Source of the DNA: an uncultured delta proteobacterium
GTDB taxonomy: Bacteria > Myxococcota_A > Polyangia > Polyangiales > Polyangiaceae
Assembly (NCBI GenBank): GCA_963716725.1
Contig: CAVQUB010000030.1
Coordinates: forward strand, 1 to 64,000
DNA length: 64,000 nucleotides
Direction of reading: 5' to 3'
The notes under the pieces were generated by a model. That model had not been told where the DNA came from, searched no databases, and saw only the letters and a program-made list of their open reading frames with translations. The position numbers were made by a program, and so were the translations under genes. Shown piece by piece: positions 849 to 7,614 of this stretch (within the stretch, counting starts at the first letter, position 1; every line of letters begins with the position of its first letter).

Positions 849-2177
849 TCACGGTGGTGGGCCGGTCCGCCGGAGCCCCGAAGCACGGACTTGCTGCTCG
901 AGATCGCGAAAGCGATGGGCGAGCGCACGCACCAGCGCACCGGTCCAGCCGTCGACGCCGAGCCCTTCGCTGAGGGTTTCCTTGTCGAGCACGAGCAGGG
1001 TCACCTGGTCGACGGCGATTACGCTGGCGGCCCTCGGTTCGTAGAGCAGGAGCGCCATTTCGCCGAACACGTCCCCGGGCTCCATGGTGGCCAGGGTTTC
1101 TTCCCGGCCATCGACGCTCCGGTAGGCGCGACAGGTGCCGCTGGCGATCATGTACGCCGCGTCGCCCACGTCCCCTTCTCGAATCACGATTTCTCCGGGG
1201 GCGAAACTCTTGGTCGGCAGGTACAGCCCGCCGCGCAGGAACCGCCGTACATCTTCCGCGAGCGCGGCGACGGTCGGGTAGCGGTCCGCCGGTGACGCCG
1301 CCACGGCACGCATCACGACCTGCCGGATGCGTTTTGCCACCGGCAGGCTCCCGAGGGCCGTGTCGATGGGCACCACCTTTCCGGCGAGCGCAAGCTCGAG
1401 GGTCTCCTGAGCCGGTCGCGGCGGTCCGTAGGGCAACCTGCCGCTCACGATCTGATAGAGCACCGCGCCGAGGCCGAACACGTCCGTGCGCTCGTCCATC
1501 TCGTGCGGGTTTCCCCGCGCCTGCTCGGGGGCCATGAAGGGCGGCGTGCCGACCGGACCCTTGGACTCCATCGAGGCACGCGCTCCCGAGGCCGGGACGC
1601 TCTTGGTCAACCGTGCCAGTCCCCAGTCCATCACGTAGACCTGGCCGAAGCTCCCCACCATGACGTTGTCGGGCTTCAGGTCGCGATGCACGACGCCGCG
1701 GTCGTGGGCGTAGGCGATGGCCTCGCAGACCTTCAGGAAGATCTCCAGTCCACCCTCCAGCCGCTCGATCGAGCCCGGCGCCCGACTTCGTAACCACTGG
1801 CTGAGGGACACGCCCTGGACGAGCTTCATGGTGAAGTAGGGCACTCCCTCGGCGCTGGTGCCCAGCTCGTGCACGGGAACGATGTTCGGATGTTCGAGCT
1901 GTCCGGCAATCTGAGCCTCGGCCACGAAGCCCTCACGGTAAAACGGGTGGTTCGCCAGCTCTTTCGACAGACGCTTGAGCGCGACCTTGCGCAGCAAGAA
2001 GCGATCGAAGGCGGGATGGATGCGCCCCGCGACTCCGCGACCGAGCTCCGGTGACAGGAACAGCGCATCCGGCGTCGGGATGCCTTCGCTCACAATCTCC
2101 GCTGGGTCGATCTGATGAGCGCCGCTGACGGGGATGGCTTCGCAAACCTGAACGGGCTGGAGGAGCTCGGTGGTCAT
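849..2177 (-). CDS. Ser/Thr protein kinase with C-terminal cyclic-nucleotide-binding domain
   Basis: Hanks motifs LGRGVAG, VALK, HRDLKPDN, DWG, GTPPFMAPEQ, DVFGLG; C-terminal cNMP domain 'FAPGEIVIREGDVGDAAYMIASG...FGEMALL..PRAASV'; start placed at MTTELLQ (ATG 2177). Confidence 0.9.
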   Translation of the reverse strand: MTTELLQPVQVCEAIPVSGAHQIDPAEIVSEGIPTPDALFLSPELGRGVAGRIHPAFDRFLLRKVALKRLSKELANHPFYREGFVAEAQIAGQLEHPNIVPVHELGTSAEGVPYFTMKLVQGVSLSQWLRSRAPGSIERLEGGLEIFLKVCEAIAYAHDRGVVHRDLKPDNVMVGSFGQVYVMDWGLARLTKSVPASGARASMESKGPVGTPPFMAPEQARGNPHEMDERTDVFGLGAVLYQIVSGRLPYGPPRPAQETLELALAGKVVPIDTALGSLPVAKRIRQVVMRAVAASPADRYPTVAALAEDVRRFLRGGLYLPTKSFAPGEIVIREGDVGDAAYMIASGTCRAYRSVDGREETLATMEPGDVFGEMALLLYEPRAASVIAVDQVTLLVLDKETLSEGLGVDGWTGALVRALAHRFRDLEQQVRASGLRRTGPPP

Positions 2178-2345
2178 GGCCGCGAGGCTACCAGAGCAGC
2201 GCGGAGCGGCTCGCGCCGCGCGTTCAAGCGTGCTCAACCGTCCAGCAGGCCCGACTCCCGAACCGGGAAAGCACCGCTCGCCGCTTTCGATGGGCCGGAC
2301 CCGGGCTCGATGACGGTGGACCTCACACCAGTTATCGTGGCGCCC

Positions 2346-3116
2346 ATGAGCCAATGCGAGCACTGCGGCGCGCCCCTGCAGCGGAATTTCGAGAGCCAAG
2401 CCACCTGTGAGTTCTGCGACCGCGTCAACGCGCCCTTGCAGCGCCAGGTCGAAGTCCCGGTGCCGGTGCAAATAGTCCAGAAGGTGGTGCACGTCGTTGG
2501 GGCCGGCTCCCCGGAGGCGCTGGAGCTGCGCTGCCCGCACTGCCGCAAGCGGTTGGTCAGCGTGGTCGCCAAGGGCGTCGAGCTCGCCGGCTGCGGCGGC
2601 TGCGGCGGGATCTGGATCGACAACCAGAGCGCGCGTCAGGTGCTGAGCACACCGGATGCGGTGTTTGCCGATCTGGCCCGGCGCGCCGGCGGCAACGCGC
2701 GGGATCGCGGCCCTCGCGGGTCGAGGGCGAGCTGTCCGGTGTGCACGGCGGTGCTCGATCGCGTGGTCACGAAGGGCATCGAACTCGACGTCTGCGGCGA
2801 GCACGGCACCTGGTTCGATCCCTTCGAGCTGGCGGCGCTGGTGGACACGCTCGGGGGGCGCACGCCGAGCAGGATGCCGCTCGGTGACACGCGGGCGATT
2901 CACTGTGCGACCTGCAAGACCGAGATCCGCGCCGACCGCGCCAACATCACCGAGGACGGCTTGTGCTGCGAGGCCTGCTGGCGCTCCCAGCAGGCGGTGG
3001 TGATCGCCGATGCGGACCGCCGGGCGCAGGCGTCCGGCGCGATGGCGGTCGGCGGAGTGCTGTTGGGCGTGGCCGCCGTAATGCTGGGCGCCGCGGCGGG
3101 CTCGAAGAGCGCCTGA
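2346..3116 (+). CDS. Multi zinc-ribbon protein (two zf-TFIIB-like domains) with C-terminal transmembrane helix
   Basis: CEHC..CEFC; CPHC..GVELAGCGGCGGIWID; CPVC..GIELDVCGEHGTWFD; CATC..CEAC; hydrophobic C-terminus. Confidence 0.75.
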   Translation: MSQCEHCGAPLQRNFESQATCEFCDRVNAPLQRQVEVPVPVQIVQKVVHVVGAGSPEALELRCPHCRKRLVSVVAKGVELAGCGGCGGIWIDNQSARQVLSTPDAVFADLARRAGGNARDRGPRGSRASCPVCTAVLDRVVTKGIELDVCGEHGTWFDPFELAALVDTLGGRTPSRMPLGDTRAIHCATCKTEIRADRANITEDGLCCEACWRSQQAVVIADADRRAQASGAMAVGGVLLGVAAVMLGAAAGSKSA

Positions 3117-3164
3117 GGCCGGCGGTGTGCCCAGCGTGGAGCCAGGCAGCCTTGGGCCGAGTCC

Positions 3165-4445
3165 TCAGCCCTGTCGCCAGGGCCCCATCGACAAAGGCGC
3201 GTCGGAGCGGTCGGGCAAGGATGGTTCGAGCTCGACCCGGTGTTCTTCGTAGCCGTAGGCGGTGGGCGTGAGCTCGACCAGCGTGTGCAGCGGGATGGGC
3301 ACGTGAGGACACTCCTCTTGCGGGCGCCCGGTGAGGTAGCCATAGAGCGCCCGGATGATGGCTTGGTGAGCGACCACCAAGATGGGCTGTCGCTGCCGCT
3401 CGAGATCCACGATGACGGGCTCGAGGCGCTGGATCACGTCGGCGTAGGACTCGCCACGCGGGTAGCGGTAGCGAAACTTGTCGGAGCCACGCGCACGGAA
3501 CTCGTCGGGCAGATCGCGCTTGATCTCTTCGTAGGTCATGCCGTCGCAGATGCCCGCGTCGATTTCGTCCAAGGCCCTCCGCGCGATGGGTCGGAGCCCG
3601 AGCTGGGTGGCGGTTTGCACCGCCCGCTTGAGGGTGCTGGTCCACACCACCAGCCGCTCGGTCTTGGGTTGTCGAAGCATGTGCGTGGCGAGGCTCCGCG
3701 AGTATGCCATGCCGCGCGCAGAGAGATCGCTGTCGCCGCCGATGCGGTTGGCAGTGTTGAACACGCTCTCGCCGTGTCGGGTGAGCCAGATCTTTCGCCG
3801 TGCTGGGTGGATGTTCATCAAGAAGAACATCAGCCGCGCGCTGAAGTAGCCCGCCATCCGATTGACGACGACCTGCCGCCCCTCGTCGATGATCTTCACA
3901 TAGCCCTTGTCGGGCTCGTTCACTGGTTCGTAGTTGCGCTCGTAAAACGCGATGCGCTGGCGGAAGTCCCGCACGGCTTCTTCGGTGTCGACGTCGGCGT
4001 AGTCGGGTGAGCGGAGTTTGTTCTCGCGCACGTTGCGCTCGACGACGGCTTCGTCCTCGCAAATGCTCTCGACGAACACGACTTGGATGCCAACGGCGTT
4101 GCAGCGTTGCCAGATGGCATCACGGCGAGACTTCTCGATGTTCGTCGCGTCGTAGATGGCGACCTCGCCGCCGCCGATGAGCCAGCCCACTAGATCGTCC
4201 AGCGCGCGGCGGGCGATGGCTTCGCGCACCTCGCTGTTGCTGGCGTCTTCTGGGTCGAAGAAGCTCGCCGGCTGGCGGGCTCCGACCTGCGAGCGCCGGT
4301 ACTCTCCCACGTTGAAGGTGCGGGTGTTGTAGCCGAGCCAGGACAAATAGCGGGCGATCTTCCGGGCGATGTAGGTCTTGCCCCGAGCCGGCAGCCCCAC
4401 CATCACCAGTGCGTGTTTGGGGATCTCGTGGCCTTCGTGCAGCAC
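3165..4445 (-). CDS. Bifunctional 6-phosphofructo-2-kinase / fructose-2,6-bisphosphatase (PFKFB-like)
   Basis: Kinase domain MVGLPARGKT, FNVGEYRR, DATN, ESIC, SPDY; histidine phosphatase domain IWLTRHGES, STLKRA, LDEIDAG, RYPRGESY, VAHQAI. Confidence 0.92.
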   Translation of the reverse strand: MLHEGHEIPKHALVMVGLPARGKTYIARKIARYLSWLGYNTRTFNVGEYRRSQVGARQPASFFDPEDASNSEVREAIARRALDDLVGWLIGGGEVAIYDATNIEKSRRDAIWQRCNAVGIQVVFVESICEDEAVVERNVRENKLRSPDYADVDTEEAVRDFRQRIAFYERNYEPVNEPDKGYVKIIDEGRQVVVNRMAGYFSARLMFFLMNIHPARRKIWLTRHGESVFNTANRIGGDSDLSARGMAYSRSLATHMLRQPKTERLVVWTSTLKRAVQTATQLGLRPIARRALDEIDAGICDGMTYEEIKRDLPDEFRARGSDKFRYRYPRGESYADVIQRLEPVIVDLERQRQPILVVAHQAIIRALYGYLTGRPQEECPHVPIPLHTLVELTPTAYGYEEHRVELEPSLPDRSDAPLSMGPWRQG

Positions 4446-4457
4446 GGCGCAGTCTCT

Positions 4458-4739
4458 CTACTTGGCCCGCTCGTCGCAGCGTGCGAGCTCGGGCTGGCTG
4501 TTGGCAAACTGCACGCACTCGAACTGCGCGCGGGTACCGTGCGACATGCAGCCGTCGACGGTGGTTCGTTGCTGCTTGCTGTTGACGCGCCCGAGCTCCT
4601 TGTCGCGAAGTTCGTTGACGCGGATGGTCATCTGCACGCACTCGGCGCGGCTGAGCTCTCCGGTCGCTTCGCCCGTGTCCGAGCCGATCTTGTCGCAGCC
4701 GACGAGGGCGAACGGCAGCAGGAGTAGGCCGCGATGCAT
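4458..4739 (-). CDS. Small Cys-containing lipoprotein
   Basis: MHRGLLLLPFALVGC lipobox; four further Cys; ends 13 bp upstream of the PFKFB-like gene on the same strand. Confidence 0.6.
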   Translation of the reverse strand: MHRGLLLLPFALVGCDKIGSDTGEATGELSRAECVQMTIRVNELRDKELGRVNSKQQRTTVDGCMSHGTRAQFECVQFANSQPELARCDERAK

Positions 4740-4824
4740 ACACCGATCTTGTCGCCATCCCCTTTGTTCCGTCAACTCGGGGGTTCGGTGGCGATCGGAG
4801 CCCGCCCGTCCTAACCTGTGGTCC

Positions 4825-6060
4825 ATGTACAAGCGCGCCTTCGTCGGGGGGGTGTTCGCATGTGGTCTGTTGGTCCTGGGTTGCGGCGAGGACTCGGAGG
4901 ACGCCGGCCCCGGTAGCGGCGGCGCTACCAATACCGGCGGCTCGGCTGGAGCGGGCGGCTCAGCCGCGGCGGGCGGCTCGGGTGGCACGGCCGGCGTGCC
5001 GAGCAAGGGTGAGCTGGTCACCATCGAGCCTGGGGGCGACACCATCTGCTCGCGTGGGACTCCGTTCCGCTTCTTCGTCGCAGGAGGTGATCCCGAAAAG
5101 ATCGTGATCGACTTCCGAGGGGGCGGAGCCTGCTGGAACGAGATCACCTGCTCGATCTCCGATGCCATCTTCTCCCCCGAAGCCCCCACCGAGATGGAAA
5201 TCGCAGCGGCGCTCGGCGGCGGAGCGAGCGGCATCTATCGCCTCGACGATCCTAAGAACCCAGTGGCCGGTTGGAGCCTCGTACACATCCCGTACTGTAC
5301 CGGCGATATTCACTGGGGAGACGCGGTCAAGGACTATGCGCCCGACCTGAAGATCCACCACAAGGGTTTCGTGAACACCAAGTCGGTGCTCGACTGGGTC
5401 TTCGCCCGTTATCAGCCCAAGGAGGTCTTGATCACCGGCTGCAGCGCGGGCGCTTACGGAGCCATCGGGCACGCGCCCTACGTGGCGGACCAGTACCCGA
5501 ACGCGAAGATCACGGTGATCGCGGACTCCGGTTGCGGCGTCGTCAGCGACTCGTTCTTCAAGGACAGCTTTCCGAACTGGAACGCTCAGATCCCGCAGCA
5601 GGTCCCGGACCTGAAGGGCAAGGACATCACCACGCTCACCATCGTCGACCTGTACGTTGGCATCGGGAAGCACTACCCAAACATGCGCATCGCAGAGCAG
5701 ACCGCGGCCTTCGACAAGGACCAGACCAGCTACTTCCAGGTCATGGGCGGCGACCCGGCGGACTTCACCGGGAAGGTGCAGAAGTCCCTGGCGGACATCA
5801 GCGCAGGGACCCCGAACTTCCGCTACTTTTTGTCGCCGGGGCCGCTGCACTGCCTGCTCCCCTACGCGTCCATGTACGATCGCAAGAGCGAGGGCACGCC
5901 CTACCTCACGTGGATGGACGGGATGCTCAACGGCGCCACCGCGCCGCCCAGCGTGGGCTGCACGGCCACCAGCTGCAAGACGGATCCAGTCTGCGACGCC
6001 TGCAAAGCGGGTTCGGGCTTGCCAGAGTGCAGCTGGTGCGAGGGTTGGACGGGGCAGTAG
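4825..6060 (+). CDS. Pectinacetylesterase/Notum-family alpha/beta hydrolase lipoprotein
   Basis: Lipobox VLGC, Gly-rich linker, CSRGTP, GGGACW, YCTGDIHWG, nucleophile motif GCSAG, ADSG. Confidence 0.85.
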   Translation: MYKRAFVGGVFACGLLVLGCGEDSEDAGPGSGGATNTGGSAGAGGSAAAGGSGGTAGVPSKGELVTIEPGGDTICSRGTPFRFFVAGGDPEKIVIDFRGGGACWNEITCSISDAIFSPEAPTEMEIAAALGGGASGIYRLDDPKNPVAGWSLVHIPYCTGDIHWGDAVKDYAPDLKIHHKGFVNTKSVLDWVFARYQPKEVLITGCSAGAYGAIGHAPYVADQYPNAKITVIADSGCGVVSDSFFKDSFPNWNAQIPQQVPDLKGKDITTLTIVDLYVGIGKHYPNMRIAEQTAAFDKDQTSYFQVMGGDPADFTGKVQKSLADISAGTPNFRYFLSPGPLHCLLPYASMYDRKSEGTPYLTWMDGMLNGATAPPSVGCTATSCKTDPVCDACKAGSGLPECSWCEGWTGQ

Positions 6061-6110
6061 CCGACGGCAGGGCTGGCGCCGGCAGGGCAGTGGTGTAGCC
6101 TGCCGCCGCC

Positions 6111-7016
6111 GTGTACTTCCAAGACCTCATCCTCACCCTTCAGAGCTTCTGGGCGGCGCGCGGCTGCCTGATCGTGCAGCCCTACAACTCCGAGGTCGGC
6201 GCGGGCACCTACAACCCGGCGACCTTCCTGCGCTCGCTGGGCCCGGAGCCCTGGAACGTCGCGTTCGTGGAGCCCTCCCGGCGCCCGACCGATGGTCGCT
6301 ACGGTGAGAACCCGAATCGTCTTCAGCAGTTCCACCAGTTCCAGGTGATCCTGAAGCCGAGCCCGCTCGACCTCCAGGATCTCTACCTCGAGTCGTTGGT
6401 CGCCCTCGGAACCAATCCGCTCGAGCATGACGTGCGCTTCATCGAGGACGACTGGGAGAGTCCGACCTTGGGCGCGTGGGGGCTCGGCTGGCAGGTCTGG
6501 CTGGATGGGCTCGAGATCAGCCAGTTCACTTACTTTCAGCAGTGCGGCGGCTTCGACTGCAAGCCCGTGAGCGGCGAGCTCACCTACGGGCTCGAACGCA
6601 TCGCGATGTACCTCCAAGACGTCGACAATGTGTACGACCTCGCCTTCGACAAGAGCGTGAAGTACGGTGAAATCTACCGGCGCGCCGAGTGGGAGTGGAG
6701 CACGTACAACTTCGAAGAGGCGGACGTTCCCGCCCACTTCGCGACCTTCGACCACGCCGAAGCAGAAGCCAAACGCCTGCTCGACCGCCACGAAGACCCA
6801 CTGAAGAAGCTGGTCTTGCCGGCCTACGATCAGGTCGTGAAGGCCGCGCACGCCTTCAACGTGCTCGATGCCCGGGGAGCCATTGGCGTCACCGAACGTC
6901 AGCGCTACATCCTGAGAGTTCGCACGCTGGCCCGAGCCGTCGCCCAGGGTTGGATGGCGCAGCGCGAAGCGCTGGGTTTTCCGCTACTTCGTGGCGCCCG
7001 TCAGGCGGCGGAGTAG
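6111..7016 (+). CDS. glyQ: Glycine--tRNA ligase alpha subunit
   Basis: [63 protein letters not shown]. Confidence 0.98.
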
Positions 7017-7044
7017 AAAGCGGCTGCGGTCGTGTTCTGAGGGT

Positions 7045-7614
7045 TCAGCGCTTCGGCGCCGGGCGGTCGAGCCCCTGATGCTTCATGGCCTCGAGCACCC
7101 TGAGCACTTCTTGGACGTGTACCGCCGGGTCCACCTCCGGAAAGATCCGGCGGATGATGCCCTCGGCGTCGATGATGAACGTGGTGCGCGCGGCGTAGCC
7201 TTTGGCGTTGCGGGTCACGCCGTAGGCCTCCAGTACGCGGCCTTCGGCGTCGCTCAGCAGTGGGAATGGGAGCGCGTGCTGTCGCTTGAAGGCCGCGTGG
7301 GACTCCACGCTGTCGAGGGACACTCCGAGCACTTGGGCGCCGGTGGCCGACAATCGCTGCCATTCATCGCGGAATGCACAGGCCTCGCGCGTGCAGCCCG
7401 GCGTTCCGTCCTTCGGGTAGAAGTAGAGCACCACCGGGCGACCGCGGAACTCGGCGAGTGAGCGCAGCGTGCCGGTCTCGTCCGGCGCTGAGAAACCGGG
7501 CGCTGCCGTGATGGGCTCGAGTCGCTGTGGCCCAGCCCCGCCCGACTGCTTCGGACCGCAGGCGGGGGCGAGCGCTACCGCGATTGCGAGGACCCACGCC
7601 GGCGAAGTGGCCAT
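7045..7614 (-). CDS. bcp: Peroxiredoxin, BCP/PrxQ family, with putative lipoprotein signal
   Basis: VVLYFYPKDGTPGCTREACAFRD; FPLLSD; RTTFIID; N-terminal VLAIAVALAPAC. Confidence 0.88.
   Translation of the reverse strand: MATSPAWVLAIAVALAPACGPKQSGGAGPQRLEPITAAPGFSAPDETGTLRSLAEFRGRPVVLYFYPKDGTPGCTREACAFRDEWQRLSATGAQVLGVSLDSVESHAAFKRQHALPFPLLSDAEGRVLEAYGVTRNAKGYAARTTFIIDAEGIIRRIFPEVDPAVHVQEVLRVLEAMKHQGLDRPAPKR

Follow-up and report, generated by a model that had tools for sequence, protein, structure and literature searches.

The stretch of DNA analysed here, referred to as the window, comprises 64,000 nucleotides (positions 1 to 64,000, forward strand) of contig CAVQUB010000030.1 from an uncultured delta proteobacterium of the Polyangiaceae, Myxococcota, a myxobacterium of soil and water that also occurs in biofilter or wastewater habitats. 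On its reverse strand, at 3165-4445, lies a gene of the PFKFB family that encodes a 6-phosphofructo-2-kinase/fructose-2,6-bisphosphatase (PFK-2/FBPase-2). The gene was delimited using the list of open reading frames (ORFs), the translation, Pfam and a sequence search of the PDB. It is a single uninterrupted ORF of 426 amino acids that opens with GTG at 4445-4443 and closes with TGA at 3167-3165. From residue 1 onward the N-terminus is shared with orthologues of 91-92% identity.

The kinase domain (6PF2K, PF01591) spans residues 10-214 (3804-4418, reverse strand). It was detected with an E-value of 3.9e-74 and 249.2 bits against a Pfam gathering cut-off of 27, covering profile positions 13-221 of 223, and a whole-genome family search returned the same coordinates. 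C-terminal to it in the same chain is the FBPase-2 domain, a branch 1 histidine phosphatase (His_Phos_1, PF00300) at residues 219-402 (3240-3791, reverse strand; E 2.5e-39, 135.4 bits against a cut-off of 21.7). The order, kinase then phosphatase, is that of the animal PFKFB proteins. The Walker A motif or P-loop, GLPARGKT, occupies residues 17-24 (4374-4397, reverse strand), with FNVGEYRR at 44-51 and DATN at 99-102. In the phosphatase half the RHG motif at 223-225 (3771-3779, reverse strand) contains H224, the predicted phospho-acceptor histidine, and is followed by STLKRA at 270-275, LDEID at 292-296 and VAHQ at 358-361; the last holds H360 (3366-3368, reverse strand), the predicted second catalytic histidine, which is invariant in the alignments below. 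The original prediction, made from the DNA letters and their translation, had described one reading frame with complete PFK-2 and histidine phosphatase sets in the animal order. It is borne out: both domain profiles score over their cut-offs, all the motifs it named are in the translation, and all 26 of the catalytic and substrate-binding positions checked are present.

The whole chain is collinear with solved PFKFB structures. The PDB search matched human liver PFKFB1 (1k6m) over residues 13-405 with an E-value of 6.8e-115, human PFKFB3 (2axn) at ~1e-113 to 1e-114, the rat testis enzyme (1bif) at 2.3e-113 and human heart PFKFB2 (5htk) at ~1e-109. For animal PFKFB1-4 taken together, collinearity extends over residues 12-406 with E-values of ~1e-109 to 1e-115, far beyond chance. 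An AlphaFold2 (AF2) model, built on the 14-sequence alignment described below, has a mean predicted local distance difference test (pLDDT) score of 89.6 and a predicted template modelling (pTM) score of 0.86, with low confidence only at residues 1-6 and 412-426. When the model was searched with Foldseek, 26 PFKFB chains came out on top, with query-normalized template modelling (TM) scores, TMq, of 0.88-0.91 and root-mean-square deviations (rmsd) of 1.6-2.9 Å. The best match was PFKFB3 2dwp (E 6.5e-50, TMq 0.89, rmsd 1.7 Å over 406 columns). Structural alignments of the model with animal PFKFB1-4 gave 42-46% identity, TM 0.88-0.91 and rmsd 1.6-1.8 Å. The phosphatase domain by itself superimposes on the rat liver bisphosphatase domain, 1tip, with a target-normalized score (TMt) of 0.96, an rmsd of 1.0 Å and 52% identity. 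As in the animal enzymes the P-loop, the Arg/Tyr residues of the fructose 6-phosphate (F6P) pocket, the RHG/E/H set and the pocket for fructose 2,6-bisphosphate (Fru-2,6-P2) are all there. The C-terminal half has its fold and RHG core in common with monofunctional branch 1 phosphatases (CobC, PspA, PhoE, GpmB); these, however, lack a kinase domain and are only 22-29% identical. All NCBIfam models of monofunctional histidine phosphatases scored the protein under cut-off, CobC for example giving 94.9 against 162.9. By all the tests of sequence and fold the protein truly belongs to the PFKFB family, as an intact eukaryote-like bifunctional PFK-2/FBPase-2.

The protein is little more than the catalytic core. 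About 10 residues precede the kinase core, whereas solved animal chains have ~20-40, and about 20 follow the phosphatase core. The N- and C-terminal regulatory tails of the animal isoforms are not present in the translation or in the AF2 model, so the description of animal domain order without long tails stands as well. The tails are a trait of isoforms, not of the family. In animals they carry PKA/AMPK-type phosphorylation sites. Because both the N-terminal extension and the C-terminal tail are absent, the window protein is without such sites, and animal-style control by tail phosphorylation does not apply to a bare core.

Both active sites are conserved. In a 14-sequence alignment (A1) the window protein was set beside five other sequences from Myxococcota or unplaced bacteria, three marine bacterial ones, and sequences of fungi, amoebozoans, a breviate and an oomycete. 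Kinase columns invariant in A1 include G17-P19, G22, K23, R50, R51, D99, T101, N102, R107, R108 and Y172. Those of the phosphatase include R223-H224-G225, N230, R274, E294, Y305, R319, K323, Y334, H360 and R365. A deeper set within the Myxococcota was cut from 103 related loci, 96 of which gave near full-length orthologues without a stop, 90 of them distinct. At 23 of the 26 checked positions all 90 agree, and at none of the 26 does the window protein depart from the majority residue. The three variable positions are T24 (73 T, 17 S), R74 (65 R, 25 L) and Q361 (83 Q, 7 other). The nucleotide-binding and catalytic set of the kinase (Walker A, the DATN aspartate and the ENKL lysine) is present, and G17, G22, K23, D99, T101, N102 and K143 are invariant in 90/90. 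The F6P-pocket set (R50, R51, R74, T101, R107, R164, Y168) is complete in the window protein and, R74 apart, invariant in the 90. In the phosphatase, the catalytic set R223, H224, N230, R274, E294, H360 and R365 is invariant both in A1 and in the 90, as are Y305, R319, K323 and Y334 of the Fru-2,6-P2 pocket in the 90; Q361 is found in 83/90. In the window protein the substrate-binding residues, whose divergence would have spoken against the original prediction, are all present. Compared with six orthologues of the genus, the window gene has a ratio of non-synonymous to synonymous substitution rates (dN/dS) of 0.07-0.17, and the Myxococcota PFKFB genes are under purifying selection. Because of this ratio and the conservation at the 26 positions, both halves appear to be kept functional by selection.

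PFKFB is common in this lineage. Full-length matches (E ≤3.6e-143) were found in 19 of 41 related genomes, including 7/7 of the genus; in three of the 19 the matched stretch contains one in-frame stop. A pattern scan of 185,579 prokaryote genomes, one per species, found at least 597 candidate stretches, at least 574 of them encoding a relative, and the best 80 of these relatives are nearly all from Polyangiaceae or Polyangiales. Listed carriers include Sorangium cellulosum So ce56 and So0157-2, Chondromyces apiculatus DSM 436, Minicystis rosea DSM 24000 and Polyangium isolates. The Myxococcota copies, those of these organisms included, have the same architecture (~405-430 amino acids), are 54-92% identical to the window protein, fall in one clade with it and have identical invariant sites, with no essential difference. 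Close named relatives are proteins of Polyangiaceae, Sorangium, Byssovorax and Minicystis, and several, the Sorangium orthologues among them, are already labelled '6-phosphofructo-2-kinase/fructose-2,6-bisphosphatase' by NCBI. Of 401 Myxococcota genomes sampled evenly, 82 have a 6PF2K kinase domain at E ≤1e-20, in 52 of 254 genera. Carriage is uneven by family: 28/29 genomes in the family coded f32, 0/34 in f29 and 0/23 in f9. The view that bacterial homologues are sparse holds on the scale of all bacteria (at least 574 of 185,579 species genomes) but not within the lineage, with 7/7 of the genus and 82/401 of the phylum, and the family was already known in bacteria. No tblastn match at E 1e-20 was found among 72,556 plasmid and 50,697 phage records. 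PFKFB is a stand-alone chromosomal gene passed down within the Myxococcota. Four loci with 56-60% identical orthologues (L054, L076, L080, L083) lie on contigs labelled as metagenome-assembled genomes of Rickettsiales, Burkholderiales, Enterobacteriaceae or Solibacteraceae; these are likely mis-binned or mislabelled Myxococcota contigs.

Outside the Myxococcota the nearest relatives are eukaryotic. When 1.84 billion representatives were searched exhaustively and without a profile, 1236 proteins matched at E ≤1e-30. Among 30 representatives that were looked up, the nearest named ones are eukaryotic: duck PFKFB3 and proteins of Acytostelium, Rhodelphis, Podila, Flabellula, Sodiomyces, Dermamoeba, Pygsuia, Phytophthora, Drosophila, Choanoeca, Stylosanthes, Volvox, Syssomonas and Calcarisporiella. 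The 30 also included a further Myxococcota cluster and, apart from it, a marine-metagenome cluster of ~408 amino acids. The closest outsiders, amoebozoan, fungal and protist proteins (Acytostelium, Flabellula, Rhodelphis, Podila, Sodiomyces), are 48-54% identical over the whole core. Unlike the Myxococcota copies, which form a separate clade, these are longer proteins (444-1069 amino acids) with N-terminal extensions or CBM20-type additions. The marine sequences (P0268, P0214, P0261) represent a second bacterial clade of tail-less PFKFBs of ~408 amino acids, AT-rich in composition and drawn from marine metagenomes, with one member labelled Methylobacterium sp.

Of 161 candidate sequences, 128 spanned both domains and were used for a FastTree phylogeny, in which 10 Polyangiaceae, two other Myxococcota and one unnamed row grouped with support 94. 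A second tree had 66 rows. Fifty-two were kept from the 128, namely 27 named (8 on the Myxococcota side, 3 marine, 16 eukaryote) and 25 unnamed, mostly clade neighbours; 14 were copies from genomes of 11 further Myxococcota families, and the other 76 rows were left out. With IQ-TREE (LG+C20, quick search) 21 Myxococcota and one unnamed row formed one clade with a short stem and a Shimodaira-Hasegawa-like approximate likelihood ratio test (SH-aLRT) support of 97. The marine clade was placed elsewhere with support 93, and the backbone among the eukaryotic groups was not resolved. A constrained tree with the 25 bacterial rows as one clan was not rejected by the approximately unbiased (AU) test (p-AU 0.626) and lay 6.55 log-likelihood units above the free quick tree. 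When ten monofunctional phosphatases of related genomes served as outgroup to the phosphatase domain, the root fell among holozoan rows, with the Myxococcota nested. The outgroup stem measures 4.4 changes per column, with a warning of long-branch effects, and this placement can be taken as a weak hint. For the kinase domain the nearest outgroups are too remote to serve for rooting (AAA_33 at E 1e-7 in Pfam). In the comparison with eukaryotic and bacterial homologues that the original prediction called for, the Myxococcota copies come out as a single clade.

We read the history as one old arrival or origin in the Myxococcota, after which the gene was inherited vertically and lost from some lines. 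The more conventional direction, and the one somewhat favoured here, is transfer into the Myxococcota from an early eukaryote. The opposite direction appears distinctly unlikely. In it, a myxobacterium-like lineage would have given rise to the fused kinase/phosphatase, or handed it on, at about the time of eukaryogenesis, and the Myxococcota would keep the ancestral bare-core circuit acting on class I fructose-1,6-bisphosphatase (FBPase). Bacterial origin stands as a reading because the Myxococcota are one clade with a short stem and a single bacterial clan is not rejected. Against it is only the weak, long-branched outgroup rooting, which sets the root inside the eukaryotes.

The genome of the host was searched for enzymes on which Fru-2,6-P2 could act. 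It has one gene for class I FBPase (G000:C8; NF006778, 456.6 bits against a cut-off of 368), and a search of this genome, which is 84% complete, gave no GlpX. Four genes of the phosphofructokinase (PFK) family encode proteins of 361-442 amino acids: an ATP-type enzyme (L013), a 'mixed'-type enzyme (L012), a pyrophosphate (PPi)-dependent PFK (L015, G000:C2:457015-458340; NF041103, 642 bits against 550) and a divergent PFK with a GGDD...PKTIDND signature (L014, G000:C5:656486-657784). A fifth, fragmentary match at G000:C12:340495-340933 on the reverse strand (L016, L017), with an in-frame TAG between its two pieces, is possibly a decayed PFK copy. Fru-2,6-P2 binds the active site of class I FBPase. 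In the 401-genome sample this enzyme is found in 74/82 PFKFB carriers against 138/319 non-carriers, and GlpX in 0/82 carriers against 70/319 non-carriers. This distribution agrees with class I FBPase being the partner. According to a passage in PMC6791715, Myxococcus xanthus uses GlpX, which would fit the carrier pattern, the families of the sample being known by code alone.

These observations suggest the following mechanism. The N-terminal P-loop kinase would phosphorylate O-2 of F6P with ATP and form Fru-2,6-P2. The C-terminal histidine phosphatase would take the 2-phosphate off again by way of a phosphorylated H224, aided by E294 and H360. H224 is presumably the phospho-acceptor, going by work on the rat liver and testis enzymes. 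In a bare catalytic core the balance of kinase and phosphatase would probably be set by substrates, metabolite effectors or expression. The product would regulate the node between F6P and fructose 1,6-bisphosphate. Class I FBPase, inhibited by Fru-2,6-P2 at its active site, would be the best-supported target, and activation of one of the four prokaryote-type PFKs a weaker possibility. It is reasonable to suppose that the organism can make Fru-2,6-P2. We infer the two activities because of the family membership and the conserved sites, and likewise infer Fru-2,6-P2 in vivo and its target. That PFKFB makes and hydrolyses Fru-2,6-P2 and so regulates this node, with class I FBPase as the most likely target, is a reading to which we give a probability of roughly three in four.

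Several observations weigh against this reading. The roles of the residues (ATP binding and catalysis, F6P pocket, phosphatase catalysis, Fru-2,6-P2 pocket) are taken from mammalian PFKFB3 and rat-liver numbering and are assumed to carry over. The duplicated eukaryotic PFK-1 with the allosteric site for Fru-2,6-P2 is not in the host genome, where no PFK scores above 229.3 bits with TIGR02478, whose cut-off is 708.4; in this the myxobacterial host differs from the animal or eukaryote system. The association with FBPase and GlpX is confounded by kinship, since whole families are all-or-none and the genomes are not independent, and Fisher values computed for it are overstated. Family f9 has class I FBPase in 23/23 genomes and PFKFB in 0/23, and in 8/82 carriers no class I FBPase was detected. 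No PFK stands out as partner by phylogenetic profile: in the 41 related genomes the divergent type is found in 12/19 carriers against 7/22 non-carriers, and the PPi type in 6/19 against 11/22. The gene neighbourhood offers no metabolic clue, only the glyQ side being kept, in the 3-5 closest of 80 related loci. Finally, no published activity, metabolite or expression data for any Myxococcota PFKFB were found in the literature. Searches for Myxococcota PFK-2/FBPase-2 or Fru-2,6-P2 in myxobacteria found nothing either, the comma in '2,6' partly limiting the matching of terms.

A side observation concerns the window's family outside the genus (relatives G007-G024). There the two PFK types with a PPi signature complement each other: the divergent type (L014) is found in 5/7 PFKFB carriers and 0/11 non-carriers, and the L015 type in 0/7 carriers and 9/11 non-carriers. 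This complementarity may simply mark two subclades.

The same chemistry could serve without a regulatory circuit. Fru-2,6-P2 or another sugar bisphosphate would then have a role other than control of PFK and FBPase, or the physiological substrate would not be F6P. The missing eukaryote-type PFK-1, the lack of a conserved metabolic neighbourhood and the absence of clear PFK co-distribution all count in favour of this. So does a slight variability of the F6P pocket in the clade, where position 74 reads Leu in the alignment of 25/90 orthologues, though not in the window protein; a hand comparison with the Sorangium row of A1 places an Arg three residues before it. However, the residues that line the F6P and Fru-2,6-P2 pockets in the mammalian enzymes are all present and almost invariant in the 90 orthologues, and in the 401-genome sample class I FBPase is found in nearly every carrier and GlpX in none. 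The explanation is considered unlikely.

It is very unlikely that the enzyme is effectively monofunctional in the manner of some paralogues of yeasts and protists, with the kinase or the phosphatase alone mattering in vivo. The lack of regulatory tails would fit this, and so would the many eukaryotic paralogues that have one dead half. But H224, E294, H360 and R274 of the phosphatase and K23, D99, K143 and R164 of the kinase are invariant across the clade, and purifying selection acts along the whole length. Arg at position 274, moreover, is what we take the phosphatase-competent isoforms of liver and testis to have, in place of the Ser of PFKFB3.

The contig itself was checked against other sequencing data. 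DNA runs of nine studies contain the stretch, no RNA run being among the 24 listed, and four runs from four studies were compared over window positions 1500-7200. One independent metagenome contig of 9333 nucleotides spans 1500-6353 with 40 differences, and in another run contigs cross the two gene ends, at 2861-3532 and 4077-4642, with zero differences. The gene belongs to this bacterium and the contig is no chimera, a possibility that the original prediction itself had named as one that would refute it. Eukaryotic contamination or a chimeric contig, which a draft genome (7.9 Mb, 35 contigs, 84% complete, 3.9% contamination, one PFKFB copy) and the eukaryotic relatives beyond the Myxococcota might suggest, is refuted as far as sequence data reach: contigs of independent studies bridge both junctions, the order glyQ, small lipoprotein ORF, PFKFB recurs in other assemblies, the G+C content near the gene (0.68) lies within the 0.63-0.71 seen across the window, a single clade holds 21 copies from at least 12 Myxococcota families, and the frame is unbroken with no intron.

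The small ORF directly upstream of PFKFB (4458-4739, reverse strand) encodes a predicted lipoprotein of 93 amino acids with the signal MHRGLLLLPFALVGC and four further cysteines, and its stop lies 12 nucleotides ahead of the PFKFB start. By tblastn it is directly upstream and co-oriented in 11 related loci (L003-L008, L019-L023) with 36-74% identity, and because of this range it is judged less conserved than PFKFB. It is possibly co-transcribed with PFKFB. Eight window neighbours were compared with the 80 related loci by tblastn. Those kept were glyQ (5 loci), a pectin-acetylesterase-like gene (2), Bcp (3) and MutS2 (3), all among the closest of the 80. The pectin-acetylesterase-like protein, with a lipoprotein-type N-terminus (~4830-6060, forward strand; PF03283, E 6.8e-16), lies between glyQ and the small ORF. 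It has this place in only two of the five loci that keep glyQ (L021, L022) and therefore appears to be a variable insert.

On the other side of PFKFB, and convergent with it, is a gene for a protein with two TFIIB-type zinc ribbons and a hydrophobic C-terminus (2115-3116, forward strand; PF13453, E 1.2e-12), which had no tblastn match near PFKFB in the 80 related loci. Two genes from PFKFB, from 849 to ~2140 on the reverse strand, a Ser/Thr kinase with a C-terminal cyclic nucleotide monophosphate (cNMP)-binding domain is encoded (Pkinase, E 5.4e-34; cNMP_binding, E 8.4e-24), a PKA-like combination. It was considered as a partner of PFKFB and dropped, with only generic kinase-domain matches of 29-35% in 26 of the 80 loci. 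The forward strand at 3-836 encodes the C-terminal part of a protein that is rich in cysteine and probably secreted; it extends past the window start and has no Pfam match.

Control by Fru-2,6-P2 is described in a passage of PMC9721465, citing Rider 2004, as absent from bacteria except Desulfovibrio desulfuricans, and one in PMC12873801, citing Michels & Rigden 2006, calls it eukaryote-specific. In contrast to both statements, a whole bacterial lineage keeps both active sites invariant under purifying selection. The genomic pattern in the sample is clean, PFKFB carriers occurring with class I FBPase and never with GlpX. With cultured, non-pathogenic carriers such as Sorangium cellulosum So ce56, Chondromyces apiculatus and Minicystis rosea, bacterial Fru-2,6-P2 signalling is directly testable, and so is the question of its target where the eukaryote-type PFK-1 is absent. 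The minimal tail-less enzyme would also provide a useful reference point for how the regulatory tails of the animal enzymes were added. If the family did originate in bacteria, the Fru-2,6-P2 switch would not be a eukaryotic invention.

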